DNA from: Okamejei kenojei | Lineage: Eukaryota | Direction: 5' to 3' | DNA: 64,000 nucleotides | NCBI GenBank assembly: GCA_035221665.1 | Contig: CM069171.1 | Coordinates: 10,478,001-10,542,000, forward strand | Program-made: the position numbers and the translations under genes | Notes under the pieces: model-generated | What the model was told of the DNA's origin: nothing | Databases searched by the model: none | The model's input: only the letters and a program-made list of their open reading frames with translations | Part shown: positions 13,752-61,180 of the stretch, piece by piece | How the letters are laid out: each line of letters opens with the position of its first letter | Numbering within the stretch: position 1 is the first letter of the stretch

Positions 13752-16700
13752 ACCCACTAATATCCCACTGTATCCACACTTGTATCCACACTGTATCCAC
13801 ACTATATCCACACTGTATCCACACTATATCCACACTGTTCCACACTGTAGCCCACACTGTATCCACACAATATCCACACTGTATCCACACTGTATCCACA
13901 CCTGTATCCACACAGTATCCACACATATCCACCGACAGTATCCACCTGTATCCCACATTGTATCCACACTATAATCCACACGTATCACACTGAATCCACA
14001 CTATAACCACACTATATCCACACTGTATCCACGTCTGATATCCACACAGTATCTCCACACTGTATCCACACTGTATCCACACTATATCCACACTGTTACC
14101 ACACTGTATCCACACAGTATCCACACAGTATCCAAAACATTATCCTACCCTGTATCCACACTGTATCCACACTGTATCCACACCTGTATCCACACTGTAT
14201 CATACAGTATCCACTCTATATCCACACTGAATCCACACGTACCACACTGTATCCACACTAAATCCACACTATATCCACAACTGTAACCACACTATAATCA
14301 CACTATAACCACACAAATCCAACACTGTATCCACACAAATCCACTCAGTATCCACACTGTATCCACGACTGTAAACCACCCCTATATCCACACTGTATCC
14401 ACACTGTATCCACACTATATCCACACTGTATCCACACTAAATCCATCACAATATCCACACTATAATCCACACTGTAACTCACTGTAGTCCACACTATATC
14501 CACACTAGATATCCACACTGAATCCACAATGTATCCACACATATCCACTGTATCCACGACTGTATCCACACGTGTAACCTCCACACTGTATCCACACTAT
14601 ATCCACACTGTATCCACCACTGATCCACACTATATCCACACTGTAATCCACACTATAACCGACACTATATCCACACTATATCCACACAATATCCACACTG
14701 TTATCCACACTGTAACCACCAATAGATCCACACTATAACCACACAATATCCACACTGTATCCACCACTGTAACCACACTATATCCACACTATTATCCAAA
14801 CTATACCACACTATATCCACACAGTATCCACACTATATCCACACTATATCCACTGTAATCCACACTGTTAAATCCACTACTATATCCCCTCTTTATCCAC
14901 ACTATATCCCACACTGTATCCACACAATCTCCACACAATAACCACACTGTATCCACACTGTATCCACATCTATCTCCACACTATATCCCCACAGTAATCC
15001 ACACTTATCCACACTATATCCACTGTATCCACACTATATCCACACAATAATCCACACTGATTCCACACTGTATCCACACTATATCCACACAAAAATCCAC
15101 ACAAAATCCACACTGAAATCCACACTACTGTATCACACAATCACCATATCACACACTGTATCCACACTAGATATCCCCACTGTATCCACACTGTAACCAC
15201 ACTATACCCCACTATATCCCAACTTAAACCACACTGTATCCACACTATATCCCACACTAAATTTTCCCCACATAAATCCACATGTATCCAACTGAATCAC
15301 ACACTATATCCACACTATATCCACACTGTAAATCCCACCCTATATCCACACTGTAAATCCCATCACACTATCTCCACACTGTATCCACACTGAAACCACA
15401 CTAAAAACCACCCCATAAATCCACACTGTATCCCCAACTATAACCACACTAATATCCACACAGGAGACCACACTAATATCCCGCACAGTAACCACACTAA
15501 ANNNNNNNNNNNNNNNNNNNNNNNNNNNNNNNNNNNNNNNNNNNNNNNNNNNNNNNNNNNNNNNNNNNNNNNNNNNNNNNNNNNNNNNNNNNNNNNNNNN
15601 NNNNNNNNNNNNNNNNNNNNNNNNNNNNNNNNNNNNNNNNNNNNNNNNNNNNNNNTCCACACTGTAATCCACACTGTAACCCCACTGTATCCACACTTAT
15701 ATCCACACTGTATCCACAACTGAAACCACACTATATCTACACTGTACTCCACCCTAATCTACACTGTATCCACACTATATCCACACAAAATATCACACTG
15801 TATCCACACTATATCTACAACTGTATCCACACTATATCCACTCTGTATCCCACTATATCTAACACTGTATCCAAACACTATATCCACACTGTTCCACTGT
15901 ACCACACTATATCCACACTGTATCCACACTATATCCACACTGTATCCACACTATATCGAACACTGTCTCTCACTATATCCACACTGTATCCACTCTGATC
16001 TACACTGTATCCACACTATAATCCACACAATATCTACACCTGTATCCCCACTATATCTACACTGTATCCACACTATCTCCACACAGTACCACACTATATC
16101 TACACTGTATCCACACAACATATAATCCACACTTATCCACACTATATCTACACTAGTATCCACACTATATCCACACTGGTATCCACCCTATATCTACACT
16201 GTAACCACACAATTATCCACACGTATCCACACAATATCTACACTGTATCCACACTATATACACACTGAATCCACACTATATCAACACTGTAATCCAACAC
16301 TAATCCTATACAGTCTCCACCACTATATCCCACACTTGTATCCACTGTATCCACACTAGATCCACACTGTAACACTATATCCAAACTATATTCCACACTT
16401 AACACTATATCCACACTATATCCACACTATATCCACACTGTAATCCACACTATATCTACACTGTATCCACACTATATCCACACTGTATCCACACTATATC
16501 TACACTGTATCCACACTATATCTATACGTATCCACACTATATCAACACTGTATCCACTGTATCGCACACCATATCCACACTGTAACACATATCCACACTA
16601 TATCCACACTGTATCCAACGACTGTATCCACACTGTATCTCACACAATATCCACACTGTATCCACACTGTATCCACACTGAATCCACACTATATCCACAC

Positions 16701-16990
16701 TGTATCCACAGCTGTGACCACACTGTATCCACACTGTATCCACACTAATAAATCCACACTGTATCCACACTGTATCCCCACACTATATCCACACTGTATC
16801 CACACTGTATCCACACTGTAATCCACACTGTATCCACACTGTAATCCAAACTATATCCACACTGTATCCACACTGTATCACACTGTATCCACACTGTATC
16901 CACACTGTATTCCACACTGTATCCACACTAAATCCACACTGTAATCCACACTGGTGACCTACAGCGTGTATCCACACTGTATCCACACTC
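13752..16990. repeat. 11-bp tandem satellite (ATCCACACTRT)n
   Basis: Hundreds of atccacactgt/atccacactat units; internal gap 15502-15655. Confidence 0.97.
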
Positions 16991-16994
16991 TCCA

Positions 16995-17460
16995 AGCGGA
17001 ACGATCACCTTCTTCTGTCGCAAGGGGCACGCCAGCGGACGTGCTACGTCACGTGGCAGCGTCGGACCCGGAAGACCCTGGCGGCGGGCCTCTGCCACGG
17101 AAGTGTGATCCCCGGAAATAAGGTGGGAGCCGCGCCTCGGGCCCGGGGTCGGGGTGAGTGGCGGCTCTCCGGCCCCTCCCCCCTCCCGCCCCTTCTCCCC
17201 CTCCCCCCCCCCCCGCACCCGCTCCCCCGGGCCCCCCTCCCCCCGGCGCCGCGGGAGAAGCCCCGACTCCGTCCCTGTTTAAAATAAACGGAGACGCCGC
17301 GGCCGCAGCACCGGGGGAGGGGGGGGCGCTGTGGCTGCGAGCCAACAACAAGCTGCCGGCGGCCCGGCGCCGGGCGCGGGCAGCATCTTGGTGGGGAGCG
17401 GGCCTGGGTTCGGGCACCTCACAGCAAAGATCCCACAAGAATCTTTGCTTCAGAGCGCCC
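16995..17460 (+). promoter_or_regulatory. CpG-island promoter and non-coding exon 1 of the small plus-strand gene
   Basis: CpG-rich; ctacgtcacgtgg (CRE/E-box-like, 17044-17056); ETS-type ccggaag 17068, cggaagtg 17098, ccggaaat 17112; donor GGG|GTGAGT at 17153/4 (alternative AAG|GTGGGA at 17122/3). Confidence 0.7.
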
Positions 17461-17469
17461 CGAGCTCAC

Positions 17470-17950
17470 GGATCAGTCACAGGTCAATGTGAGGGGTCAC
17501 AGGGTCAATGTGGTGGTCACAGTGTCAATGTGAGGGGTCACAGGGTCAATGTGGGGTCACAGGGTCAATAAGGGGTCACAGGGTCAATGTGAGGGTTTAC
17601 AGGATGGAGAGTGAGGGGGTCAATGTGAGGGGGCACAGGGTCAATGTGGGGGGCCATAGGGCAATGAGAGGGGTCACAGGGTCAAGTGAGGGGCCACTGG
17701 TCAATATGAGGGATCACAGGCAATGTGTGAGGTCACAAGATCAATGTGAGGGGTACCACTGATGGGAGAGTGAGGGTTCAGTGTGAATGGTTTAAAGGGT
17801 CAGTGGTGTGAAGGTTGAGGGTCCCATTGTGTGAAGGGTTAAAGGGCTCAGTTAGGGTCAGTGTGTGAAAGGGTTCAAGGGTCAGTTATTGGTCAGTGTG
17901 TGAAGGGTTAAAGGGTCAGTTAGTAGGGGTCAGGTGTGAAGGGTTAAAGT
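17470..17950. repeat. Minisatellite (~20 bp gggtcacagggtcaatgtga, then a gggtcagtgtgtgaagggttaa variant)
   Basis: Direct tandem units visible. Confidence 0.9.
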
Positions 17951-18039
17951 GTGGTGGTGGGGTGGGGAGGGTTCAAAGGAGATCAGCGTGGGTCAGTGTG
18001 TCTTTGTAACAGCTATACAGGATTGCTGATTCTGTTGTT

Positions 18040-18870
18040 AGAGGGGTCGCTCTGCCTCACAATGCTGAGACCCTGGTTTGATCTTGACCTCAGTGCTGTC
18101 ATGTGTGGAATTCGTAAGATCATAAGTGATAGGAGCAGAATTAGGCCTTTCGGCCCATCAAGTCTATTCCACATTTCAAGTCATAGTCATAGAGTGATAC
18201 AGTGCGGAGGCCCAACTTTGCCCACCACCGGGCCAACAATGTCCCAGCTCACTAGTCCCACTTTGCCAGCATTTGGGTTCCATAATCCCTCCAAACCTGT
18301 CCAGTCCATGTACTTGTCTAACTGTTTTCTTAAACGATTGGATAGTCCCCAGCCTCCAACACCTCCTCTGGCAGCTTGTCCATACACCCACCACCCTTTG
18401 TGTGAAAAAGCTCTACCCCTCTGAATTTCCTATTAAATCTCTCCCCTTCACCTTGAACCTATGTCCACTGGACAATCATGGCTGATCTATCTCTCCCTCC
18501 TAATCCCATTCTTCCTTGCTTCCTCCCCATAACCTCTACAATCCGTACTAATCAAGAATCTATCTATCTCTGCCTTAAATATATCCACTGACTTGGCCTC
18601 CGTAGCCGTCTGTGGCAAAGAATTCCCCAGATTCACCCACCACCCTGACTAAAGTTTTGCATGTTCAACGCCAGTGACCGCCGTGGGTTTCCTCCCACAT
18701 CCCAAAGTCGGGTTGCGTTTATAGTTAGTTGCCCCTATGTAACTTGCCATTGGTGGTGCAGGGAGTGGATGAGAAAAGTGGGATAGCATAGAACTAGTGT
18801 GAACAAGTGATCTAGGTCAGCATGGACTAGGGTGGGCCGAAGGGCCTGTTTCCATGCTGTATTTTTTTCA
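18040..18870 (+). mobile_element. SINE containing two nested reverse CR1 3' ends
   Basis: SINE head 18040-18110, CR1 tail 18111-18175 split by a second tail (18176-18470) and resuming at 18471-18650; SINE resumes at 18651. Confidence 0.65.
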
Positions 18871-19548
18871 GCATGTGAGACTCCGGAGTTAGCTTGAGGG
18901 GTTTTGGGTGATTGACCAGGGGTATAGGAAATTGTGCCGCTCATGTTTGTAACAAATTCTTTCCATACTCTGTGGTGTAAGTCTCAAACATTGAAGATTT
19001 TTGAAGTATCCTTGTGACGGTGTTGGATTAAGATGTCGGCGGGATGTGGAGGTTTAACGGCTCGGAGCTGGTGCAGCAGGTAAACCAAACTGCCCACTAT
19101 TATGTATTTCCCAGAGCAATAACGAGAAAGTAGTTAAACAGTAATTTAACCACCTGTGGCTCTACCTTGCTGTTTACACTCTGACTCAGAATGTGGCGTC
19201 CGCAGGTCCTTGCATCTGAAGAAGGGTCCCCTCGACCAAGGCACGGGTCGTGAGGATTACTCAGGGTGGGCAGTCAGTCGGCTTTTAAAACATTTTAAAA
19301 CCACGCATGCACAGATTGTTCTCCTCTCCGTAAAAAATAAAAAATAAAAATAAAGAAAGTAACAATTCAATTTGCCCAAGGCTTCCAAATCTCCCCATCA
19401 TTCTGAATTAGTGAATGGATGGAGGGTGGAGGGTGACGGCAGGTGGAGAGATGGTAGGTAAAAACGGGAGCACACCGGAACAATTGGATCAGTTGTGAAT
19501 CAGTTCAACAGTAACTAGTTCAAGGGACCAATTGGGGAGAGAGTTCCT

Positions 19549-20398
19549 TTCAACAGCGTGTGGGGAGTCCGACCAGGGTAAAGTTGGCAGGGGAGGGTCA
19601 CAGCGTTGAGAAGGAGGGGGTCGGGGATCATGGCAGTAACTCACTCGCTCACCGCTGCCCCCGCGACGCTCTGGCGCACGGAGCCACTGGCATTGTGGCG
19701 GGGGAGGGAAGCAGCTCGCGTGGCTATGAGTGGCCGCCGGGACCGGACCGGGGAACCGACCGCCATCTCAGAGCCTTCTGCTGGCCCACTCACCTCTGGC
19801 CGTGCTCTCTGTCTGAACAGTGAGGGGACCAGCTCAAGAGCAAAGATCATAGAACGGAGCGGGTCAGTGGGTGATGGATAACAGGACAGCGGGTGGTGGA
19901 GCTTAAACTTGTGTCAGCTCGAACAAAGGACCAATTGAGGCTACTTGCACTGACATATGGAGTAAGCTTCACTGCCCGCTGTCGTGTTATCAATTGCCCG
20001 CTGACCCGCTCTTGAGCGAGTTGCTGGCATGATCCCCGACCCCCTCCTTCTCAACGCTCCTGCCCTCCCCGCAACTTTACCCCTGGCCAGACTCCCCACA
20101 TGCTGTGAAACAAATTCTTCCTTCCCCCCCCCCCCCCCCCCACTACCAGCAGCGCTGTCCTTTTGCAGTCCGCTTCCCACTTTACAGCCGCTTCCCATCA
20201 GCTTGCTAACAATGAGGGATAGACGTGGCCAGTCCCTCAGTACAGCAAATTTCCATTCTTGATGTCGCTTGTTCTGAGGAATAGTTAAGTCTATCTTTCT
20301 TGCCTAACAACCCAACTTTCGGCCTTCAAGGTGCAGGTACATTTTCGTGCCTCATTTTTAGGTAACAAATAGTGTCTTCATTGCCGGGAAATACGGTA
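19549..20398. mobile_element. Tc1/mariner-pogo-like non-autonomous element remnant with internal inverted repeat
   Basis: ~100-bp inverted pair 19549-19646 / 20014-20110; right end ccgggaaatacgg|ta. Confidence 0.4.
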
Positions 20399-20439
20399 TT
20401 TAAAAACATTTAGCTCAGAGGGAAGTAAATGAACTACGT

Positions 20440-20965
20440 TCCAAGAAGCTCTTCATTAATTATGGTTTAATAACAACAAAAAAACTTCTGGAAAAACGCA
20501 ACCACGCCAACGTTCAAAATGTGGATTTCAAATATGGCGGAAACGCTACATCTTGAAGAAATGCGATTCCTCCTACTAGGCAAAGTAGACCAATTCTTAA
20601 TGACTTGGTCTCCTTTTATCGGCTTTTTACAAGCATATGGTGCAACATAACATAACCTTAGAAATTAAATGGTTCAGAACCGGGTGACGGATGGTTAAAA
20701 ATACGAAATAGGTAGATCTCTCCTAATTTCTTTTCTCTCTCTTTTTCTTTGAATCTTCTTAGCTTTTGATCTCTGCTCTCTGTCTCTCTCGCTATCTGTT
20801 TCCACTCGCTTGTCTATCTATTTCGACACTCTTTATTTCCCTTTTTCTTTCACTGTTCTTTTATTATTAAATTAAAAATAAAAAGTTGTACAAGAATGGT
20901 AATGTGTATGTATGTATTAGGTACTTAGGTACCACACCACTGTACTTACTTCTAACAAAAAAAAA
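20440..20965 (+). mobile_element. L1-clade LINE 3' fragment
   Basis: ggtttaataacaacaaaaaaa..ttctggaaaaa..tggatttcaaatatgg (LITAKK..FWK..W motif), T-rich 3' UTR and A tail; related to 40751-41492. Confidence 0.65.
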
Positions 20966-21580
20966 CATTTAGCTCAAAGAAATCTACTTACCACATTATT
21001 TGTACACGAACTCCATTCTTCTCTCTTTGTTTCTTAAGATACTCTTAAGATAATGACAATCCATGTTTGAAAAACCCGCCAAGAAACTTGTGCATGCACA
21101 GTCCATCGTGCAAAGGCAGAATTTCAGCTGCCTTCAGCTCCCCTTGTCATTGTCACATTCCCGTAATACATGTACTACGCATGAAAGGCACAGAGAATTA
21201 TGCCTATCTTAGAGATCGATCTCTTAGGTAAGCATAATTCTCCCATGCCTTTACTATTTATATTTGATAATTATCACTTTATAATGTTTGTCAGGGTAGG
21301 CAGTGCCTACCTTGCCTACCCTGACGGCACGTGCCTGGTCTCGACCCAAAATGTCACCTATTCCTTCTCTCCAGAGATGTTGCCTGTACCGCTGAGTTGC
21401 TCCAGCATTTTGTCTGTCTTGCGTCTGCAGTCTGTGACTGCTAGACTGGCTGCTTGTCTCTACTGCACCCTCCTCTCCCTGCCCCCCACACGCGCTTGCC
21501 TCCCCGGCACCTCTCCGCTCTCTCGTCCTCACCGTGTCACTTAATTTTGGATTCAAACTGACTGTCTTTGCCCACTGAAG

Positions 21581-21712
21581 ATGGCTCTGTGGAACTGGCT
21601 GAACCGTGACGACGAGGGAAGCAAACAGCTACTGAAGGCGGTGACCGGGGCCCGAGTTGCTCACTCACTTCTACAGTGCCTGACAGGACAGGACAAAATA
21701 GACCTGTACAAG
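21581..21712 (+). CDS. Coding exon 2 of a small unidentified gene (MALWNWLNRDDEGSKQLLKAVTGARVAHSLLQCLTGQDKIDLYK)
   Basis: Acceptor ctgactgtctttgcccactgaag|ATG, 44 open codons, donor AAG|GTAATG, phase 0; unique sequence among repeats. Confidence 0.8.
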
Positions 21713-21795
21713 GTAATGACTGAGCCAGCCTCCGATTGATATAAGAGGCCATTTGGCCCATCAAGTCACTGTTGCCTTGCCTTAGCAGCATTCCC

Positions 21796-21934
21796 GGGGT
21801 GGGAGATTGCAACCTTCACGTGGTCCCGCCCTGTTTTGAACGAATGCAATCAACCTGGCGTGCACAATCAAGTAAGATCAAATAGAACAACTTGTCCGAC
21901 AACTTAGGTGTTCACGCCACACGCAAGAAGAATA
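21796..21934 (+). mobile_element. Short 5'-truncated retroposon (RTE-like AAG tail) with 12-bp TSD
   Basis: agcagcattccc at 21784-21795 and 21935-21946; aagaagaata tail; second copy at ~56541-56695. Confidence 0.7.
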
Positions 21935-23068
21935 AGCAGCATTCCCCTTCACTTATTTACACTGAACCTATTGTTCCTCGTCTGAGGAAGGGTCACGAGC
22001 CGAAAACGTCCACCTAATCCTTTTCTCCAGAGATGCTGCCTGACCCTGCTGAGTTACTCCAGCAATTTGTGTTTATCTTCTATTGTCCCCACATTCCCCA
22101 TAAATACTACCTTCACCTACACAATGGGGGTAATTTATGGCAGTCATTTAGTCAAGTCAGGTTTTATTCGTCACTTGCACATAAAGTGCAATTAAATAAA
22201 TTTGCCAGCAGCAGTACAACAAAAAAAGATCATACAATACACAATAAAAATTTAACACAAACATCCAGCACAAAGTTTGGTCAGTCCTCCTCCATTTTCC
22301 CCCGTGGTCGGGATCACAACCCTCCACAGTGGCCGCTGCGGGCGTCCAGATGTGCAGACAAGGTAAGTCCATTTAACCTACCAATCCGAATGTCTTTGGG
22401 ATGTGGGGGAAACCGGAGCACCCGGAGGAAACCCATGAGGTCACAGGGAGAATGTTACAAATGCCGTAAAGACAGCACCCGTAGTCAGGATGGAACCAGG
22501 CAGGTGAGGCAGCGGCTCCACCTTGTGACATTGTGGCATAACAGTTCCAGAAGCAAAATCCCAATGTCTGCAAATGCGCAGAGGACGAATCGGACAGTAC
22601 CCGAATTTATGGATGTATTGTTCAGAAGCCGGACAACAGAGGGGAAGAAGCTATTCCTCAATCTAGTAGTGTGCGCTTTCAAGCTTCTGCATCTTCTGCC
22701 TGATGGAGCAGGGAGAAGAAGGAATGATGGTGGTGGGATGATGGGTGGTGAGTGGTGATTCTGTGGTGTTTTCTAGGTCCTTGGTGATTGTTTGATTATT
22801 GATCGATTGATAGTTTATTCGTCAGTTCATGAGTTCTAGGAGCAGAATAAGGCCATTCAGCCCATCAAGTCTACTCCGCCATTAAATCATGGCTGATCTA
22901 TCTTCCTCTCCCATTCTCCTGCCTTAACCCCTAACACCGTCACTAATGAAAAATCTGTCAATCTCAGCCTTAATATCCATTGACTTGGCCTCCACAGCCG
23001 TCTGAACACAAGTGTGCACAATGTCAGTACTTAAAGGGTGCCGAGAAAGTTACAAAAGTATTCAACAT

Positions 23069-23247
23069 GTTTAAGAAGTAACTGCAGATGCTGGAAAAAT
23101 CGAAAATAGATAGAAATGCTGGAGAAACTCAGTGGGTGAGGCAGCATCTGTGGAGTGAAGGAATAGATGAAGTTTCGGGTCGAGACCCTTCTTCAGTCTG
23201 ATTCCTTCACTCCATAGATGCTGCCACACCCGCTGAGTTTCCCCGCC
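23069..23247 (-). mobile_element. Penelope-like 3' end with inverted segment and 14-bp flanking duplication
   Basis: aaagtattcaacat at 23055-23068 and 23248-23261; internal inverted repeat ~23124-23164 / 23201-23241. Confidence 0.7.
23172..23196 (-). ncRNA. Penelope-type minimal hammerhead ribozyme core motif
   Basis: Minus strand reads CTGAAGA-A-GGGT-CTCG-ACCC-GAAAC (CUGANGA, stem II, GAAA); stems I and III not verified. Confidence 0.55.
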
Positions 23248-23431
23248 AAAGTATTCAACATAATCCCTCTTCCTTCTTTTCCCCCGGGTCCCTCTTAGTT
23301 CTCTTAGCCCCCCACCCCATGCCCGGTCTCTCCTTGTTCTCGGCAGCGCGTCCTCGACCGATGATATTGGGTGAAGCTCACAGATATTTGCTACTTCCAG
23401 GGAAATAACTGCATCCCGTTCATCTCTGCAG

Positions 23432-23557
23432 AAGCAATGTATCCTGGGCATAGCGGAGTTTGTGAAGAAGAATCCTCGTGCGTCGCAGACTGAGCTGAAC
23501 AACGAGCTGAAGAAACACGTGATGCTGTTCGCAGCCAGGGTCCACGCCCTGGGATAG
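23432..23557 (+). CDS. Coding exon 3 (last) of the small gene (KQCILGIAEFVKKNPRASQTELNNELKKHVMLFAARVHALG*)
   Basis: Acceptor cccgttcatctctgcag|AAG, phase 0 matching exon 2, GC3-rich codons, TAG at 23555-23557. Confidence 0.8.
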   Translation, partial: KQCILGIAEFVKKNPRASQTELNNELKKHVMLFAARVHALG

Positions 23558-23782
23558 GCCCCCGTCAAACACCGGACTGCAGGACGATCCCAGTCGCGCA
23601 GCACAGAACCGGACCCTTCAGCCCATCAAGCCCATGCCAGCCCTTCTACACTTATCCCACGCTGACCTTCCCCACTGAGCGTGGGTCTGTGGACCTGGGC
23701 ATCCTTTCTTGATGCTGCTTTGGTAAACGTTTCGTACCGTACTTCTGTCCCTGTGATATTCCCTGTTTCTGTTGACTCGTGG

Positions 23783-23788
23783 AATAAA
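23783..23788 (+). terminator. Polyadenylation signal of the small gene
   Basis: AATAAA ~225 nt after the stop, with a TG-rich tract downstream. Confidence 0.6.
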
Positions 23789-24068
23789 ACCCATGGTAAT
23801 TTGAAGCTTGCCAACAATGTGATTTGATGCTAGTGCCTTAATACGGAGCCTAGACTAATACCTTGTGGTAGTTAAATTATTGCAGCATTAAACATATCCT
23901 TTAAACACTCTACTAAGCAAGATTAAATCTCTGCACACTAACCATTTCTCTGCAGTCTTGAATATGTCATCTTCTTGTGATATTGAAATCTTTACATTAA
24001 AAAAAAAATCACGATCCTGCCAGTCGCACTGAGACTAGAAGGAGGTCCATTGAATTGTGGCGCATGTG

Positions 24069-24419
24069 TCAGGACTTGAAGCCACCTTCTAGTGTTGACC
24101 AGTCAGCCATTGGTGGACGGGGAAAGCTTGGAGGCTGAGATCTAAGTTGCAGTTGACACAAGCTCTGGTTGGATGGCCAGTGGGTGCTGCGAGTGGTCGA
24201 TCGGACTGTCGGTAGACCGGTGTTGCAGCGAGCGAGCGGGCAGACTGACGGATCCGGCCCTATGAGGGTGCTGAAGGCAGTCCGGGCAGTGCTGCTCCCC
24301 ACCATCATCACCAAGATAATCCAGAAGGGCACGCTGGCCGAGGTGGACACGCTGCAGGACCACACGTACGGACCCCGCAGCCGGTCCCAAAGCAGCTCCA
24401 GTTCCAGCCGTGGGCAGCT
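24069..24419 (-). CDS. Candidate terminal exon, unidentified (SCPRLELELLWDRLRGPYVWSCSVSTSASVPFWIILVMMVG...GGFKS*)
   Basis: Strong acceptor cctaactcgccccccccttccag|; 117 codons to TGA in phase 0 with high GC3; a second frame is also open to 24142. Confidence 0.45.
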   Translation of the reverse strand, partial: SCPRLELELLWDRLRGPYVWSCSVSTSASVPFWIILVMMVGSSTARTAFSTLIGPDPSVCPLARCNTGLPTVRSTTRSTHWPSNQSLCQLQLRSQPPSFPRPPMADWSTLEGGFKS

Positions 24420-26359: not shown

Positions 26360-26530
26360 TCTCTAAAATATATAACAAGAGATGTAATGCTGAGGCTTTA
26401 TAAGGCACTGGTCCGACCACATGTGGACTATTGTGAGCAGTTTTGGGACCCATAGCAGAAGAGGGATATGCTAGTAATTAGACAGGGCGCAGAGGAGGTT
26501 TATGAGAGAATGATTGGATTAACATATGAT
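26360..26530 (+). mobile_element. CR1 fragment, left part (DIRS target; continues at 31471-31660)
   Basis: gtaatgctgaggctttataaggcactggtccgaccaca...ttaacatatgat joins tgatgaatgtttgactgctctggacctgtactcgctggag; uninterrupted relative at ~32000-32160. Confidence 0.85.
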
Positions 26531-26601
26531 TAGTAAGATTAAACGAGAACTCACCTGTTCGAAGTTTGATCGTTATTTTACGAGGAGTTACGATGAGGGA
26601 T

Positions 26602-26639
26602 TACGTGAAGAAGAGCCCGCCTCACGCTGGTAACGGCAT
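26602..26639. repeat. DIRS 3' ITR (38 bp; partner 31406-31443)
   Basis: tacgtgaagaagagcccgcctcacgctggtaacggcat is the exact reverse complement of 31406-31443. Confidence 0.95.
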
Positions 26640-26757
26640 ACTTCAAAGCAACGGCATGAAAAACACAGAACACCAAAGCCGGAGTAACATAGTAAGGCTC
26701 ATAAAAAGACTTAGAACCACCATTTGATCATTTATTTTACGAGGTGGGAGTGGAGGG

Positions 26758-26871
26758 CACGTAATCCCTCATCGTAACTCCTCGTAAAATAACGATCAAA
26801 CTTCGAACAGGTGAGTTCTCGTTTAATCTTACTATTTTACTTCGGAGTCCACGTGAGTGACTACGTGAAGA
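26758..26871. repeat. DIRS internal complementary region (ICR)
   Basis: 26758-26834 is the exact complement of 26531-26607; 26834-26871 is complementary to 31434-31470 except for one extra C. Confidence 0.95.
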
Positions 26872-27149
26872 GTTTTAAAGCTTTCTGTGTTTTTTATGTC
26901 GTAGAATTAATCCGTACGACAGTCCGGCTAAGTAAACACATACATGAGAAAGCAGACAAAAGTTAGATCTTTTTCACAATTAAATTTTTTAATGGATGAA
27001 AAAACCATATAATACCCTCCTTATATTTGAGGGAAAATTGATTACAAGTGACAAAAGATATCAGTGACTACACAACTGATTATAGCAATTAATAGAAACA
27101 AAGCAGGTGATTATAGTGCTCCCAACACCGCGTGTCCCAAAGCTTGTCA

Positions 27150-28085
27150 TAGTGTGAACAGGTTTGTTGTAGAACTTTGAAAAAGTTTCTTCTTTACTCC
27201 ACCCTGCGATTTTTAAAATATGCTCGAGAGGTACGTCCGCCCCTTCGCCGCGGACGTAGCTGCCGCCCTGGTGGAGTGAGATTTGAAGACATCAGTGTCT
27301 ACTCCCGCTAAAACCAACACCTGTTTCAACCATTTTGAGATAGTTTGAACTGAAGCTTTTGTGTGTGGCTTTTTGTGCGTAAGCAGCAATGTCTTTTCGT
27401 TTCCTCGAAAAGTGTCCGTAATTTTAATATATTGGTTCAAATGTCTAACCACACACAAAGCAGGCTCAACATGAAAAGCTTGAAAGGTTACCTTTGTTCC
27501 AGATCTGCCTGGTCTACTTTGTTTGATCAGATCGTAAACATAGAATACAACATTATCTGTAGTCACATGCATACAGTCTAAACGCAACATTTGTAAAGTT
27601 TGCACTCTTTGGGCTGAGACCAGTGCCATTAACATGACCAACTTCAATGTTAACCTATCCAATGTCAACCCTTCAATTGGCGTCCATTCTCTAAGTAGAG
27701 CAAGAACTATGCTCACATCCCAAATCTCTGTATATCTAGGTTTTGGCGGATTCATGTGAAAAATTCCTTTCATGAATCGTGATATTAATGGATGCGACCC
27801 AATTGACTTCTCACCAATCATAAGTCCTAAATAGGACGACAAGGCACAACGTGCAGTGTTAATGGCACTGTAACTTAAATGTTGCCCAAAGTGCAAATTG
27901 GCAAGGAATTCCAAAACATGAGTAACATTCACAGATTCATCAGAAATATTTGACTGTGTGCAAAATTCTTCCCATTTCTTAATATGTGTCATATATTGTT
28001 TCTGTGTACTATGTCGCCATGATGCACCAATAACTGTCAAAGTTTGGTCCGACAATCCCAGTTCCTGTAGTGGTCTGGTCAAAAC
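27150..28085 (-). CDS. DIRS tyrosine recombinase (two 1-nt shifts near the C-terminus)
   Basis: SAM-like binding domain, SAQR and HSTR motifs, and after the shifts ILKIAGWSKEETF-QKFYNKP carrying the catalytic Tyr; true stop not determined. Confidence 0.93.
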
Positions 28086-28740
28086 CTGCAGATTAACAAA
28101 TTCATATATGCATATAATGGGTAACCTTGATTTGTTACTGGATTAGTCAAGATATCACTACAGTTAGGAATCTGCATATATGGTTCTTTAATCATATTTA
28201 GCATAACTGGGAACCAAGGTTGAGTTGGCCAATTTGGCACTACCAACAATCCGGAAGCTGAATCTTGCTCTATTTTCTTCAAACATCTCTGGATCAGAGC
28301 AAATGGTGGAAAAGCATAAAAGAACATTTTTCCCCAGTGTAATGAAAATGCATCTACTGCAACTGCGTCCGGATCATGTTCCCAAGACACATAATGAGGC
28401 AATTGATGATTAAGCCTGGATGCAAACAAATCAATTTCTGGCAAGCCAAATTGTTTAACAATATTCTTAAATATTGCTGGCTTAAGCATCCATTCCGTAT
28501 TATCTTTAAAAATCCTGGACCTTCCATCTGCTACCACATTGTCTTTACCTGGAATATAGCTTGCTGAAATCCATATCTGCCGATCAATACACCATTGCCA
28601 TATCTCATTGACCAGACAATCACATGATACTGATCTAACTCCCCCCATGTGATTAATGTAAACCACAGCCGTTTTATTGTCTAATTGTATTAATACATGC
28701 AGACATTGTTTAGCAGAACAATATGCTTTAAGCCCATTAA
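28079..28740 (-). CDS. DIRS RNase H C-terminus and N6-adenine methyltransferase-like (MT) domain
   Basis: DNKTAVVYINHMGG, YIPGKDNVVADGRSR, IDLFASRLN, DAFSLHW, YAFPPF, PNWPTQPWF. Confidence 0.92.
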
Positions 28741-29206
28741 AAGGCCCCCAATAACTCCAAATAGTTAATACCATATTGTTGGAGCAACACTTGCTCTTCA
28801 GTTTTCCATCTACCTCCACAACTGGTAGATAAATCTGTGGCCCCCCATCCGAGAGCACTAGCATCTGTTTGCAAAACCATTTCAGGCTGTTTAATCATGA
28901 TCTTTTTAGCAGCTTGTGGGACATTTTCAACCCACCATTGCAATTCCAATACTGCTTCCTTTGTTAATTGCATAGGTCTGTCAAAGTGACCTGCCTTATC
29001 TTTAAGAGCCCTTACTTTGTCCCTTTGAAGATTTTGATAATGTAATGGCCCAAACTCCACTGCCGGAAAAGCTGCCACTAATGTACCAATGACCTTTGCC
29101 ACTTCTCGGATGGAGGGATAAGGTTTGTGAATGAGATAATTACACATTTGCAAAATATCATTTGTCTTCTTTGCTGGCAACGTAACTAACATAGTTACTG
29201 AGTTAA
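28737..29206 (-). CDS. DIRS pol connection region and RNase H N-terminus
   Basis: ELQWW, LQTDASALGWGA, INYLELLG. Confidence 0.92.
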
Positions 29207-29970
29207 TTACAACCCCAGAAAATCAATTGATTGAACTGGCTGCAGCTGGGATTTAATTGGATGAATTAAGAATCCAAGCTCTTTAAACAAAGCTTTAGTA
29301 ACTGAAATTGAGTGCTCAGCTGACTCTTGACTATCATTAACAATCAGAATGTCATCCAGATAAGCCATTACAATGTGTTTCTGTGCTCTTAATTGAGCTA
29401 AAACTGGTTTCAACAGTTTTGTAAAGAGTCTAGGAGCTGAACTTAATCCATTTGGTAAAGCTTTGAACTGCCATAATTGCCCCTGCCAATAAAACTTTAA
29501 GTATCTCCGAAAAAGATGATGAATTGGTACAGAATAATAGGCGTCTTTTAAATCAATCTTAGCCATATAAGAACCTGCTGAAATCAAATATTTTGCAGTT
29601 TTAAATGTCTCCATCTTAAAACGTTTGTATTCTACAAAACTTATTTAGATCTGTAAGGTCTAGAATAATTCTACAACCACCATCTTTCTTATCTCTGCGA
29701 AATATATTAGAGACAAATTGATGCTTATGTTCATAAGTTTTTTCAATTACCCCTTTTTCGGATAATTTGCCAATTTCCACATCAATCTCCATTCTTTCTT
29801 CTGGAGAAAACACATAAGCATAAGCAGGTTTATTCTGTACAGGAGGATTGACCCCTTCTTTAAAAATAATAATAGCTCCTGAAACTGCTTGTAATATAAA
29901 CCGATCAGAAGTAATATTAAGCCAGGCATTATAAAATTTTTGCAATCTCCCTCCAACTGGAGATTCATCC
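29207..29970 (-). CDS. DIRS reverse transcriptase
   Basis: VGGRL..F..AW, KKDGGCRIILDL, DLKDAYY, LPNGLSSAP, YLDD, FLG; 1-nt shift at ~29636. Confidence 0.96.
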
Positions 29971-31213
29971 ACAGTTTCTTTAAGGATAGAAGTCTTTAAT
30001 ACCTCTCCATAGGAGCGTGATGGTCTCCTCTTTCCCGAATGCAGGGAAGCAGCGGCCTGTGTAGCACGATAATACCTTCGTGACAAATTTCTGCCTCTAT
30101 AACGAAAATCAAAACTCCTTCGGGCCGAAAACCCTTTCCTTTGTCCAAAGACAAAAGGCTTAATAGTGCTAAAATATTTAGCTTCTTCATCCAACTGCTT
30201 CAGTTGTTTCGGCAGATTTTCTCCAAACAAATATCCAGGAGCTTGAACTCCACTTTCTTGACACAGGCTTGCAAATCTAGGGTGAAATATGGGCCGAATC
30301 GCCATTTTCCTCATGCAATTGATCTCATAAAACGAATTGCACATTAAACCCAAAGTATCTCTTTGAATCTTGTCCATTTCCAGTTTCTCCATTTGCCTGC
30401 CAAACGCCGTGATGGCAGCCGAAAATAATTTTAGCACCTTTTGAAATTTCATTTCTTGGGCTCTCATACTTGGAGTCATAGATGCCCATACCATCGGATT
30501 CACCGTAGGCACTTCCAATGAGGCACAATTGCCTGGTGCTTTATATAATTCTGATAATTCATTCATCACAGTACTATGAAGCTGGGTGAGATACCATATA
30601 ATTTATATTGGCAGCCAGGCTTTCTTCCATATCCTCACCACTTCCTTCAGGTATAGCAAAAACTTTGTGCTATCCCAGGCAGATCAAGCCTTTTCTTTTT
30701 ACTTTGTGGCGTACTTTCAAAAACCATTTCAAATTCAGCAGGGTCTGCCTTCTGCAGCCCTAATTCCATCGGGATATTATCCCATGAGACTTCTTCCAGC
30801 CCAAATCGTGGGTCTGGAGTATCATATTCCCAACTTGGCCCACAGCCATATTCATCATATTGAAACCCCTCAGGGATTTTCTGGGATTCATGAGGGTACT
30901 GTGACCCTTGTCTCATAATAGTTTGGAGAACTTTCTCCATATGCTCCATTTTTAGCCACATAGTTTTATTAACTGGAGGTCTTTCAAAATCAGAATCATC
31001 AGAAACCACGGGCCTCACAGTTTTCTTTTTGCATTTCTTAGGAACACTTTCCTCCGTGGTTATAATTTCCGGAGAATCTGGAAATTCTATATCGGGTAAA
31101 TCAGTGGCCAACGGTATCGGAACCGGGTCCACTCTAGCTTCGCTTCCCGTATATTTACTCTCACCCCGGGAGGCTCTTTTCACCCGCGAAGCCTTCCTTC
31201 CCGATTTCTCCAT
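29971..31213 (-). CDS. DIRS gag-like ORF (two 1-nt shifts at ~30585 and ~30660)
   Basis: ATG at 31213; PGNCASLEVPTVNPMVW and YLFGENL motifs typical of DIRS ORF1; reads in frame into RT. Confidence 0.85.
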
Positions 31214-31789
31214 TTTTGTTAAAATTTTTATCTTGTGCTCATCAGCACGTTAGCGTCTAAATTTTACTTTTAGTTTCGCTGTTGGAACATCCAGCGTAAC
31301 CTAAAACCCGCGCCGATGTAACTTCACTTACCTGCGGGCCGTTCCGACCGCTGCGAGGAGCTGCTCCTTACTGCAGCTCCACCTTCTGCCGTCAGCGTCG
31401 ACGTCATGCCGTTACCAGCGTGAGGCGGGCTCTTCTTCACGTAGTCACTCACGTGACTCCGAAGTAAAATTGATGAATGTTTGACTGCTCTGGACCTGTA
31501 CTCGCTGGAGTTTAGAAGGATAAGGGGGGGGACCTCATTGAATAGTGAAAGGGTGGATGTGAGAGGATGTTTCCACTAGTGGGAGAGAGTCTAGGACAAG
31601 AGGGCACAGCTTCAGAATTAAAGGATGTATCTTCAGAAAGTAGACCTGGAGGAATAAAATTAAAGAGAAGGCATGTAACATTGCAGAGGTCAGTGGGGTT
31701 GCTGGAGAATTGGGAAGCTTTAAAAAAAAACACCAGAAGGTAATTAAAGGTTGAGAGAGTGGGCTGAGAAGTGGCAGTTGGAATACAGC

Positions 31790-57540: not shown

Positions 57541-58739
57541 AAAAATTAAACAGAGAAATCCGATGACTGATGAAAATAAAATCTATCTCCCCAGGTAAAG
57601 GGAAAGTGGAACAGCACCTGTATTCGGAACAAAATGTGTTCGGACTCAGAGAGCGATAGGTGACAGTTATTATCAAGGTGAGGAGACATAAGTTAAGGCA
57701 AGAGAGGATGCTGGTGTAAGTTAATGGGAAAAGGGAAATAGAGGTTCTGGGAGGCGAATATACAGGGGTGAAGAGAAATAATCTGTTTTCCCACAGTAGA
57801 AAGGTGACTAATTCATTGTAATGTATTGTATATTACATTATAATAAATTTTTCCTGAGTACATACATACCAGAGGAAAACAAAAGCGTTTCTTACTCAAC
57901 CAGTGTCCATTCAGTGTGGCTGTAAAAAATAAAATAGAAATAAAGAATAAAAAGTAACATAAAACTCACGAGTTCCATCGTCAGTGGGGCACGACAATGG
58001 CTCAGCTTCAGTGTGTCACAGGTTGGAGTTTGTGTGGGCGCGAACTTTTGGCATGGGCAAATCCCATTTATCAGTCTGGTGTCTTGTAGCCCGCGGGAAG
58101 AAGCTGAGGATCAACCTGTCGGTTTTGCAGCTGATGCTCCTGTAACCTCTTCCCCAGATGGCAGAATGGAGACATATGAGATGCGATGCGGTGGTAGGGG
58201 TCTTGATTGGATGGAGATGGCTCTGCTATACCATCTCTTCCTGATATGTCCAGCAATAAAGAGAGTGGAGCTGGGCTTAGATATCAAATTAGTAAGGACA
58301 AGCCATCAGCGATGCAGCAATAGAGCAGCTGGCCCTCGTAGGAGCCAGAACCTGGGTGGCGTCCTGACCCAGGTCTGTCTGTGTGGCCGAGGACCTTTTT
58401 TCGTTCAAATGTCGTCCCCAACTCACGGAACTACCTGAATTTTAAACAATATTGTGTAAAAATATATAAATTCGTCTCCAGAAACTCGTCAAGACCAAAA
58501 ACCTGCTCATTTTTTAAAAAATAATGAGAAGCAGCTCAAACTTTCCGAGTAGTAATTTGATCAAGTCAATGCATGTTTGACATTGAGGTCGTACGCAATA
58601 ATTGACCACTCCCGGTCTCGAAACAGCGAGGACCCTGGGATTATAGCGCCTCCTCATTACAATCAAAAACAAAGAAGGGGGTCTGAAGAAGGGTTACGAC
58701 CCAGACGAAGTGGGGCGGAGGCTTCCAGGAGGGCCGTGA

Positions 58740-61160
58740 CGGGCGGCGCCGTGGGCGGAGGGGGCCGGGGCCGGGCCCGGGAGGTCGGCGCCTTTTGGTT
58801 GGGGGGGGGGGGGGGGGGCGGAGGGCCGTGCCGGGCCGGAAGGGCTGGCGCTGTGGCGGCAGGCCTGGCCGGGCCGGGCCTGGGAGGCGGCGCTGTGGGC
58901 AGGAGGGGCCCGGCCGGGCCGTTCTATACGGGGGGGCGGCGCTGTGGGCGGAGAGAGTGGCTCATGAGGCGGCGCTGTGAGGGTGGAGGGGCCGGGAAGG
59001 CTGTCGTGTTTGGGCCGGAAGGGCAGGGAGGCGCGCTGTGGGCGGATGGGCCGGGCCGGGCCGGGGCCTGGGGGGGCGAGGCGCTGTGGTGGGGAGGGCC
59101 GGGGGGCGGCGCTGTGGTGTGAGGGCCGGGCCGGCCCGGAGAGGCGGCGGCTGTGGGCGGATGGGCCGGGCCCGGGCCGGGATGCGGCGCTGTGGGCGGA
59201 AGGGCCGGGCCCGGGCCGGGAAGCGGGCGCTGCTGTGGGCAGAGGGCCGGTCCGTGCCGGGGGGGCTGGCCGCTGTGGGTGGGAGAGGCGCGGGCGGCTG
59301 GGCCGGGCAGGGCCGGGAGCGGCGCTGTGGGCATAGGGCCGGGCCGGGCCGGGCCACATCCGGGAGGCGGCGCTTGGGCAGAGGTGCGCCGGGGCAGGCC
59401 GCTGGCTGTGGGCGAGGGGCGGGGGCCGGCGCTGTGGGTGAAGGGCCAGGCCGGTCCGGGCTGGTCCGGAGGCGCTCTGTGGTGGATAGGGCCTGTGCTG
59501 GGCCTTGGGGGGATGGCGGCGCGCGGAGGGAGGAGGGCTGGCCGGGCCGCCGTGGGGACGGCAGCAGTGGTCGGAGGGCCGGGCACCGGTGCCCGGGCCA
59601 CGGGAGGGCGGCGCTGTGGGGGCGTAAAGGGCCGGGGCCGGGGGGGCCGGGCCGGGGGGGCGGCGCTGTGTTGGGGTGGAGTGCCGGGCCAGGGGGGGGC
59701 GGGCGCTGTGGGCGGATGGCCGGTAGGCAGCGCTGTTGTGCGGAGGGCGGGCCCGGGCACGGAGGGCTGCGGCTGTGCAGGAGGGCTGGGCGCGGCCGGG
59801 CCGGGCCGGGATGGGGGCGGCGCTGTGAGCGGAGGGGCCGCCGGGAGGCGGCGCTGTGGGCGGAGGGGGCCCCCTGAGGCGGCGCTGTGGGCGGAGAGGG
59901 CCGGGGCCGGGCAAACCGGGAGGTCGGCGGCTGAGTGGGCGGAGGGCCACGCTTGGCTGGGGCCGGGGCCGGGCCGGGCACGGGCGGGGAGGGGGGGAAA
60001 GGGCGGCGCTGTGGGGTGGAGGGCCGGGCCGGTGCCGGGAAGGCGGCGCTGTTTGTGCGAGGGCCCGGGCCGGGCACGAGGGGCGTACGCTGTGGGGCGG
60101 AGGGCCGGCCTGCCGGCCGGGGGCGGCGCGTGGGCGGTGGGCCGGCCGGGCCCCGGGGATGACGGCGCTGTGGGCGGAGGCCGGCCGGGCAGGGCGGAGC
60201 GGCGCTGTGGCGCCGGAGGGCCGGGACGGGACGGGAGGCAGGGCTGTGGGCGGAGGGCCGCGGCGGGCCGGGAGGCGGCGCTTGTGGGCGGTAGGGCCGG
60301 GCCGGGCCGCGGCCGGGAGGTCCGGCGTGAGTCGGGCGGAGGGCCGGGGCCGGGCCGGGAGGCGGTCGATCGGTTTTTCCCTTCGTGGGCCGGAGGGACG
60401 GGGCCGGGCCGGCGCCGGGACGGCTGGCGCCTGTGGGCGGGGGCACGGGCCGGGCCGGGAGGCGGCGATCCGGAGGGCGGAGGGCCGGGAGGGCGGCGCG
60501 CTGTGGGCGGAGGGCCGGGCGGTGAGGCGGCGGCTGTGTGGGCGGAGGACGGGCCGGGCCGGGAGGGCGGCGCTGTGGGCGGCAGGGCCGGCCGGGCCGG
60601 GAGGCGGCGCTGTGTGCGGTGGCCGGGACGGGCCGCGGAGGCGGCGCTGTGGCGGGAGGGTCGTGGAGGCGGCGCTGTGGGCGGAGGGCGGGCCCTGGGC
60701 CGGGCCGGGAGGCGGCGCTGTGGGCGGAGGGCCGGGCCGGGCCGGGAGGCGGCGCTGTGGGCGGAGGGCCGGGCCGGCCCGGGAGGCTGGCGCTGTGGGC
60801 GGAGGGCTTGGGCCGGGCGCGGGGAGCTGGCGCTGTGGGCGGAGGGCCGGGCCGGGCGGGACGGCGGCGCTGTGGGCGGAGGTGCCGGGGGAGGCGGCGC
60901 TGTGGGTGGAGGGCCGGGCCAGGGGTGCGGGCGATGTGGGCGGAGGGCTGGGCTGGGCCGGGCCGGGCCGGGAGGCTGGCGCTGTGGGTGGAGGGCAGGG
61001 GGCCGGGGCCGGGTCAGGGCGGCGCTGTGGGCGGAGGGCCGGGTCGGGCCCGGAGGGGCGGCACGCTATTGTGGGCCGGAGGGGCCGGGCGGGCGGGGGC
61101 GGCGTGTGGGCGGAGGGCCGGGTCGGGGGCCGTCGGGCGCGGGGCGGGGGCGCCTCGTGG
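58740..61160. repeat. GC-rich VNTR, ~32-37-bp unit (gggccgggccgggaggcggcgctgtgggcgga)
   Basis: Dozens of ggcggcgctgtgggcgga cores. Confidence 0.95.
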
Positions 61161-61164
61161 CGGA

Positions 61165-61180
61165 ATACTATCTCTCTATG
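61165..61180. other. Sequencing artefact: PacBio barcode remnant
   Basis: Same 16-mer as 13235-13250, again just before a 500-N gap. Confidence 0.85.

Follow-up and report, generated by a model that had tools for sequence, protein, structure and literature searches.

A spliced four-exon gene of Okamejei kenojei and its animal-wide family of small, predicted helical proteins

Introduction

Can a short spliced gene be recognized in a stretch of DNA where its exons are too small to stand out, and which gene is it? The question is raised by a locus between positions 17040 and 23800 of a window of 64,000 nucleotides from Okamejei kenojei (assembly GCA_035221665.1, contig CM069171.1, positions 10,478,001 to 10,542,000, forward strand; the window is this whole stretch). 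An initial annotation, made from the letters alone, proposed three exons encoding a helical microprotein of 85 amino acids (aa) that could not be assigned to a family. We found that the locus is a real spliced gene, with four exons and a product of about 99 aa, and that it almost certainly corresponds, as an orthologue, to a gene already annotated in fish, si:ch211-191j22.3.

A real gene with one more exon

The gene and its promoter comprise the following features.

16990..17460, plus strand: promoter region, CpG-island, TATA-less, around exon 1 (base composition, pattern scan)
17030..17153, plus strand: exon 1, non-coding, 5' end approximate (GT donor at 17154; no ATG in 17030-17153)
17043..17055, no strand assigned: overlapping E-box, CRE half-site and ARE-consensus match (pattern scan; candidate sites by pattern only)
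17068..17118, plus strand: three ETS-type sites, starting at 17068, 17097 and 17112 (pattern scan)
18982..19079, plus strand: exon 2, with 5' untranslated region (UTR), ATG at 19033 and the first 14 codons (X5 contig, second copy, homologues)
21581..21712, plus strand: exon 3, coding throughout with 44 codons and phase 0 at either end (remainder of helix 1, helix 2, first part of helix 3)
23432..23557, plus strand: coding part of exon 4, 41 codons and stop (helix 3, turn with the invariant Pro73, helix 4)
23558..24167, plus strand: 3' UTR, reaching 24167 or beyond in organism A (X1 and X3 contigs spanning 23430-24167)

The signals on which the three-exon model was built are all present in the sequence: a GT donor after 17153, an AG acceptor before 21581 with the ATG directly at the exon start, a GT donor after 21712 and an AG before 23432 in phase 0, a stop codon at 23555-23557 and an AATAAA at 23783. 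Its two coding exons also translate to the 85-aa frame. Transcript-like contigs were compared with the window for 4 of 13 listed runs, covering three organisms, the RNA status of these runs being the tool's guess. Single contigs bridge the junction 21712>23432 in all four runs, and they fit spliced transcripts because the GT-AG intron is exactly removed.

The other proposed junction, 17153>21581, was not confirmed. A contig of run X5 aligns to 18985-19060 and then from 21579 onward, and position 19024 is covered in runs X1, X3 and X5 at gene-contig depth; a further exon therefore lies between 17153 and 21581. This exon 2 has its ATG at 19033 and its donor at 19080 in the window, with an out-of-frame stretch of 47 bases between them, and its acceptor, judged from the position of an AG, would be at 18981. 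The homologues P0003, P0004 and P0005 all extend upstream of the methionine that opens exon 3; in P0003 (99 aa) and in two shark proteins, 14-17 residues precede it. Taken together with exon 2 in the contigs, this extension gives four exons instead of three and about 99 aa instead of 85, and the supposed start methionine becomes an internal position. Among 55 aligned family members it is occupied by Leu in 33%, Ile in 29% and Met in 19% of the rows with a residue there. The conserved motif of helix 1 begins five residues before it, i.e., in exon 2.

Use of exon 1 was examined by read depth. The X1 depth in the bin 16900-17150 corresponds to 19 bases at gene-contig depth, and about 30 letters of the X1 gene contig remain unaligned upstream of exon 2. 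At the other end, the X1 and X3 contigs read through 23783 as far as 24167, so the AATAAA at 23783 is not the sole 3' end in that organism; a pattern scan places poly(A)-type hexamers of the 3' UTR at 23783, 23887, 23922 and 23996. All six coding substitutions in the reads are synonymous third positions (exon 3, 4/4; exon 4, 2/2) among the 40 of 147 differences listed. Run X7 differs also at the first codon of exon 4.

The proposed CpG promoter with ETS and CRE sites was recovered as described. The region 16990-17460 has a GC content of 0.72, a CpG observed/expected ratio (o/e) of 0.82 and no TATA match, and none of 20000 mononucleotide shuffles reached the three ETS-type sites found within 17030-17153. 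The E-box, CRE, ARE and ETS labels are assigned by consensus pattern. A tandem array with an 11-bp unit, repeated about 288 times (window 13761-16989), ends just upstream of the promoter, and intron 1 carries further 21-bp and 34-bp tandem arrays.

Two frameshifted copies of the locus

The same contig carries a second copy of the locus at a distance of about 2 Mb (C41 ~8.42-8.46 Mb), collinear with window 13761-58702 and with the same promoter. Over these ~45 kb the copies are 79-97% identical, with indels dominating. The three coding exons (300 bases) contain no substitution between the copies but 19 inserted bases, of which five are extra in exon 2 of the window and 14 in exon 4 of the other copy. 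Each copy is thus frameshifted in a different exon, and therefore neither alone encodes the full protein. Exon 2 of the second copy is in frame (42 nt, no substitutions). The X5 contig shows no difference from the window in exons 3 and 4; from 18985 to the end of exon 2 it has 92 letters, as has the second copy, while the window has 95. The base at 19024 in three runs is also that of the other copy.

One could take this for a real duplication, in which the window copy is a young pseudogene or makes an 85-aa product from the ATG of exon 3, which has a purine at -3 once spliced. The out-of-frame exon 2 of the window, the distance of 2 Mb and an element of 4.9 kb in the window copy that is missing from the other are all in line with it. 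We nevertheless regard a real duplication as very unlikely. Copies without a single coding substitution differ by insertions that break different exons, gaps exceed mismatches by 460 to 196 over the gene region, a contig matching the window in exons 3 and 4 carries the in-frame length of exon 2, and the conserved helix 1 motif starts within the exon that the shorter product would lack. The best fit is a single locus that was assembled twice, each time with noise, perhaps as two haplotypes. The frameshift in exon 2 of the window is most likely assembly noise, and the second copy is likely a haplotig or false duplication.

Several observations concern the duplicated segment and its surroundings. 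The other copy has 529 extra bases at window position 24167, where the X1 and X3 contigs stop aligning with about 148 letters left, and the 3' part of the transcript may follow the other copy beyond this point. The 4.9-kb element (window ~26530-31465, minus strand) is a DIRS-like retrotransposon split over several frames, with a reverse transcriptase (E 3e-21), a tyrosine recombinase (E 1e-5) and a methyltransferase-like PCIF1 match; it is possibly a polymorphic insertion. The duplicated segment is flanked by two runs of 500 N, and a reading by eye finds an identical 17-letter word at the left edge of each run, within three bases of it. This word resembles a long-read sequencing barcode, which would suggest untrimmed contig ends. 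The window sequence at 58700-61180 is repetitive and very GC-rich (0.82-0.85); its CpG o/e is close to 1, and it contains long frames of low complexity.

An orthologue of si:ch211-191j22.3

The query for the family search was P0003 (98% and 90% identical to window exons 3 and 4, respectively). It matches teleost proteins with E-values of 1e-25 to 7e-20 and a coverage of 90-98%, so the search for orthologues that had been proposed did return conserved relatives. The UniRef name Si:ch211-191j22.3 is carried by salmonid, pike and damselfish members. The zebrafish gene of this name (ENSDARG00000095459, 99 aa, chr 21) shares the family, the length, the intron positions and the linkage to sdhaf1, but exon 2 is frameshifted in the window copy. 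One comparison gives 54-57% identity to teleosts; the salmonid and pike proteins with this label, used in place of the zebrafish sequence itself, are 54-59% identical. Two uncharacterised shark proteins, LOC144678018 (Cetorhinus) and chiPu_0022903 (Chiloscyllium), are closer, with 76-80% identity (basking shark 77%), and both extend upstream of the exon 3 methionine; in the Chiloscyllium model the last intron is read through and helices 3-4 are missing. The product described here has the features of the family, i.e., a length of ~100 aa, the helix 1 motif at positions 10-17 (positions 10-14 from exon 2) and the invariant Pro turn.

The claim that the protein belongs to no assignable family therefore holds in one respect and fails in another: it is the orthologue of an annotated gene, but no Pfam family covers it. 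Single exons, P0003, P0004 and the 55 members gave nothing near the Pfam cut-off. NCBIfam returned five single-member matches with E-values of 0.001-0.009, the best at 17.9 bits against a cut-off of 600. DUF5663 (PF18908) reached an Atlas feature score of 0.76-0.77 for P0037, below the bar of 0.9 and with the family on 18% of the cluster; it is not among the 25 of 70 families listed for the 55 members, and Atlas gave no usable match for P0006. The best sequence matches in PDB (terpene synthases, albumin; E 1.2 for the single sequence, 0.27 for the profile) were judged to be chance.

A profile of six vertebrate sequences retrieved 127 clusters at E<=0.001 and 65 at E<=1e-10 among 1.84 billion representatives, many of the 127 being exon fragments or intron read-throughs. 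Ten of 20 distant representatives have a species name and come from turbot, lamprey, a nemertean, two annelids, a bryozoan, an ostracod, a tick, a spider and a soft coral; a jellyfish member was also found. PMC7720500 found fish-only relatives, whereas the relatives found here include cnidarians, lophotrochozoans and arthropods. No tetrapod, insect or nematode is among the named members of the profile search, in which most rows have no species name. In a tree of 67 rows the jawed vertebrates form a clade (support 99/85) with the lamprey adjoining outside, P0003 groups with Cetorhinus (100/95) and the deeper forks are weak. A cluster of P0025 and P0148 falls among the jawed vertebrates, outside both sharks and teleosts. 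Of 138 stretches matched in homologues, 27 stop and 22 begin at the exon 3/4 boundary (profile positions 55-62), and 23 begin at positions 13-17. Such breaks of mis-predicted homologues at exon boundaries indirectly point to shared intron positions. Scans of viral and metagenome contigs with the vertebrate alignment gave 194 and 219 pattern matches, respectively, none of which was confirmed, a weak test for a spliced animal gene.

Predicted structure

The proposal of a helical product is matched by an AlphaFold2 model from the 55-row alignment, which has four helices (residues 8-23, 26-49, 51-71 and 77-98), a mean predicted local distance difference test (pLDDT) of 79.9 and a predicted template modeling score (pTM) of 0.46. 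The hairpin of helices 3 and 4 is confident, with a pLDDT of 92-94 over residues 61-90, against 72-79 over residues 11-50. Pro73 is the sole invariant residue of the 55 rows; Ala75 and Phe91 are near-invariant. Conservation is mostly hydrophobic, with Arg39, Arg47, Lys70 and Arg74 also conserved, and the alignment contains no conserved set of Cys, His or Asp. On helices 1 and 2 the conserved large hydrophobic residues extend over 260 and 280 degrees of the circumference, compared with 140 and 80 degrees on helices 3 and 4. The median isoelectric point (pI) is 6.3 and the median net charge is -1. No transmembrane or signal stretch was seen in the 55 rows, with a top 19-residue Kyte-Doolittle mean of 1.41 and no dedicated signal-peptide predictor run. 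A basic presequence is not a feature of the family either, as a net charge of at least +3 in the first 20 residues occurs in 2 of 49 members (median -1), a test that covers N-terminal and not internal targeting signals.

Fold searches with this model of pTM 0.46 (PDB with Foldseek, VIA-align, a viral library) gave no clear match, the best Foldseek E-value being 2.1 and the best Z 7.5, which is no proof of a new fold. Residues 49-99 superpose on generic helical hairpins (FLU/GluTR, ESCRT-I core, TASOR-Periphilin and others) at Z 6-7.5, several of them from protein-protein complexes. None stands out or reaches Z 8 among 48161 chains, identities are 2-16%, and no homology is implied. An internal repeat of the N- and C-terminal halves was rejected (hhalign probability 1.1%). 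In P0034, P0088 and P0077 the module of helices 1 and 2 occurs two or three times in tandem, and P0034 resembles a fusion of P0088-like and P0077-like paralogues. A model of P0034 (pLDDT 75.4, pTM 0.42) had no fold match.

Expression of the zebrafish gene

PMC7720500 lists the zebrafish gene among 12 regeneration-associated microglia/macrophage transcripts that have no predicted human or mouse orthologue, with a log2 fold change of 3.56 in macrophages of the regenerating retina versus other retinal cells, and its protein has no domain, Gene Ontology term, template or listed amphibian match. The gene is also the 24th entry in Table S3 of PMC3201981, which holds genes induced over twofold by diethylmaleate (named by PMC3472963). 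The string '191j22' in 10.64898/2026.03.04.709545 and PMC13637641 stands for si:ch211-191j22.7 (meiosin), another gene on the same clone, and was set aside. We found no functional study of si:ch211-191j22.3 in the main texts searched, supplements lying outside the search and invertebrate members possibly bearing other names. The description of the product as a helical and possibly uncharacterised microprotein is upheld, while the gene itself is an already annotated fish gene.

A binding module and its alternatives

As the overall best explanation, to which we give about an even chance, the locus is a four-exon orthologue encoding a ~99-residue, four-helix, non-enzymatic intracellular binding module. 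The more specific prediction of a soluble self- or partner-binding module or adaptor is tentative, at somewhat less than even; the binding role is suggested because the protein appears soluble and has no catalytic signature. Helices 3 and 4, hydrophobic on one face, would pair as a rigid hairpin round the invariant Pro73 turn. Helices 1 and 2 bear conserved hydrophobic residues on most faces, beyond what this hairpin could cover, and they may be buried by another subunit or a partner protein. Their lower placement confidence would be expected if another chain covered them. Tandem repetition of a module often replaces self-association, and a tandem helix 1-2 module is seen in P0088 and P0034.

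Several points weigh against this explanation. The backing of the join between exons 1 and 2 is indirect, being depth arithmetic. The low pTM may only reflect the shallow 55-row alignment, the tandem-repeat members could be mis-assemblies, and a helix that is hydrophobic all round may be the core of a monomeric bundle left unclosed by the model. A promoter of the CpG/ETS type points to broad expression and less to a role specific to macrophages. In PMC7720500 the gene is unchanged in macrophages responding to M. marinum, and PMC3472963 deletes the reverse transcription PCR result for it, so that the induction by electrophiles remains microarray-only. The functional hints found are all zebrafish expression data, namely one enrichment list and this unconfirmed microarray hit, and the literature found reports no partner, location or phenotype for the family. 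A role in macrophage or stress responses, drawn from two zebrafish expression lists, is the weakest step.

Three other roles have to be weighed against a protein-binding module. Exchangeable apolipoproteins unfold as helical bundles onto membranes and lipid droplets, and the four amphipathic helices, whose placement relative to one another is only loosely fixed in the model and two of which have broad hydrophobic faces, could form an open bundle that binds lipid or membrane surfaces in the same way. Enrichment in debris-clearing phagocytes (PMC7720500) would suit such a role. It is unlikely, however, given the absence of a signal peptide or transmembrane stretch, the near-neutral charge, a helical content much shorter than usual for such proteins and the absence of the apolipoprotein, saposin and perilipin families among the Pfam matches listed. 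Binding of nucleic acid or chromatin by the helix 3-turn-helix 4 hairpin, in the manner of a helix-turn-helix (HTH), deserves still less credence. The four conserved basic residues hint at it, as does a weak HTH_24 match in each of 6 of the 55 members, but these matches (best E 0.007) are far below family level, helices of 21-22 residues are too long for a classic HTH, the pI and charge weigh against nucleic-acid binding, and no HTH structure stands out in the fold searches.

The third role, that of a factor for mitochondria or complex II whose expression is coupled to that of SDHAF1, is suggested by the genomic surroundings. SDHAF1 is an LYR-motif complex II assembly factor; its gene was found only beside the second copy, 65 kb downstream. 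Teleost gene models (P0036, P0013 and P0014, from turbot and salmonids) fuse or mislabel the protein with sdhaf1, and two salmonid RefSeq entries label the family protein 'sdhaf1 isoform X1', hinting at shared exons or nesting of the two genes in teleosts. ETS-rich, TATA-less promoters, such as the one described here, are common in nuclear genes for mitochondrial proteins. We consider this role highly improbable all the same. The two proteins are unrelated in sequence: the portion of P0036 that represents sdhaf1 matches a separate open reading frame (ORF) at C41:8492767, and the label is an artefact of a shared locus: the neighbourhood is common, with no homology. In addition, sdhaf1 has its own CpG island here and the gene order is unlike that of the turbot model, 47 of 49 members have an acidic or neutral N-terminus, the LYR family has no match to P0003 at E<=10 and is not among the 25 of 70 families listed for the 55 members, and SDHAF1 functions in mammals, which reportedly lack si:ch211-191j22.3.

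Surrounding genes

Among 30 ORFs of the window and 117 ORFs flanking it, every domain identified belongs to mobile elements apart from a single ALKBH8_N match, in a search that would miss short exons of other genes. This match (E 4.5e-13; L010:2191-2493, minus strand) lies about 12 kb past the window end, and the domain also occurs in repeats. A CpG island at C41 ~8480001-8481000 (L016:2001-3000), between the second copy and sdhaf1, is possibly the promoter of another gene.

Implications

The gene is known and annotated, while the animal-wide reach of its family and the missing fold seem to be unreported. For genome annotation, the case shows that a noisy duplicated assembly is able to hide a gene. 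For protein biology, it brings forward a family conserved across at least six animal phyla that has no Pfam family or solved fold, and a tractable target within it: 99 residues, one zebrafish gene and a listed enrichment in macrophages of the regenerating retina. It is conceivable, if on present evidence unlikely, that this animal-wide family of ~100 residues, with introns kept from cnidarians to fish and lost towards mammals, is a self-assembling helical adaptor of phagocytes in tissue repair or stress. If true, the family would mark a pathway component kept by regenerating animals and lost in mammals.

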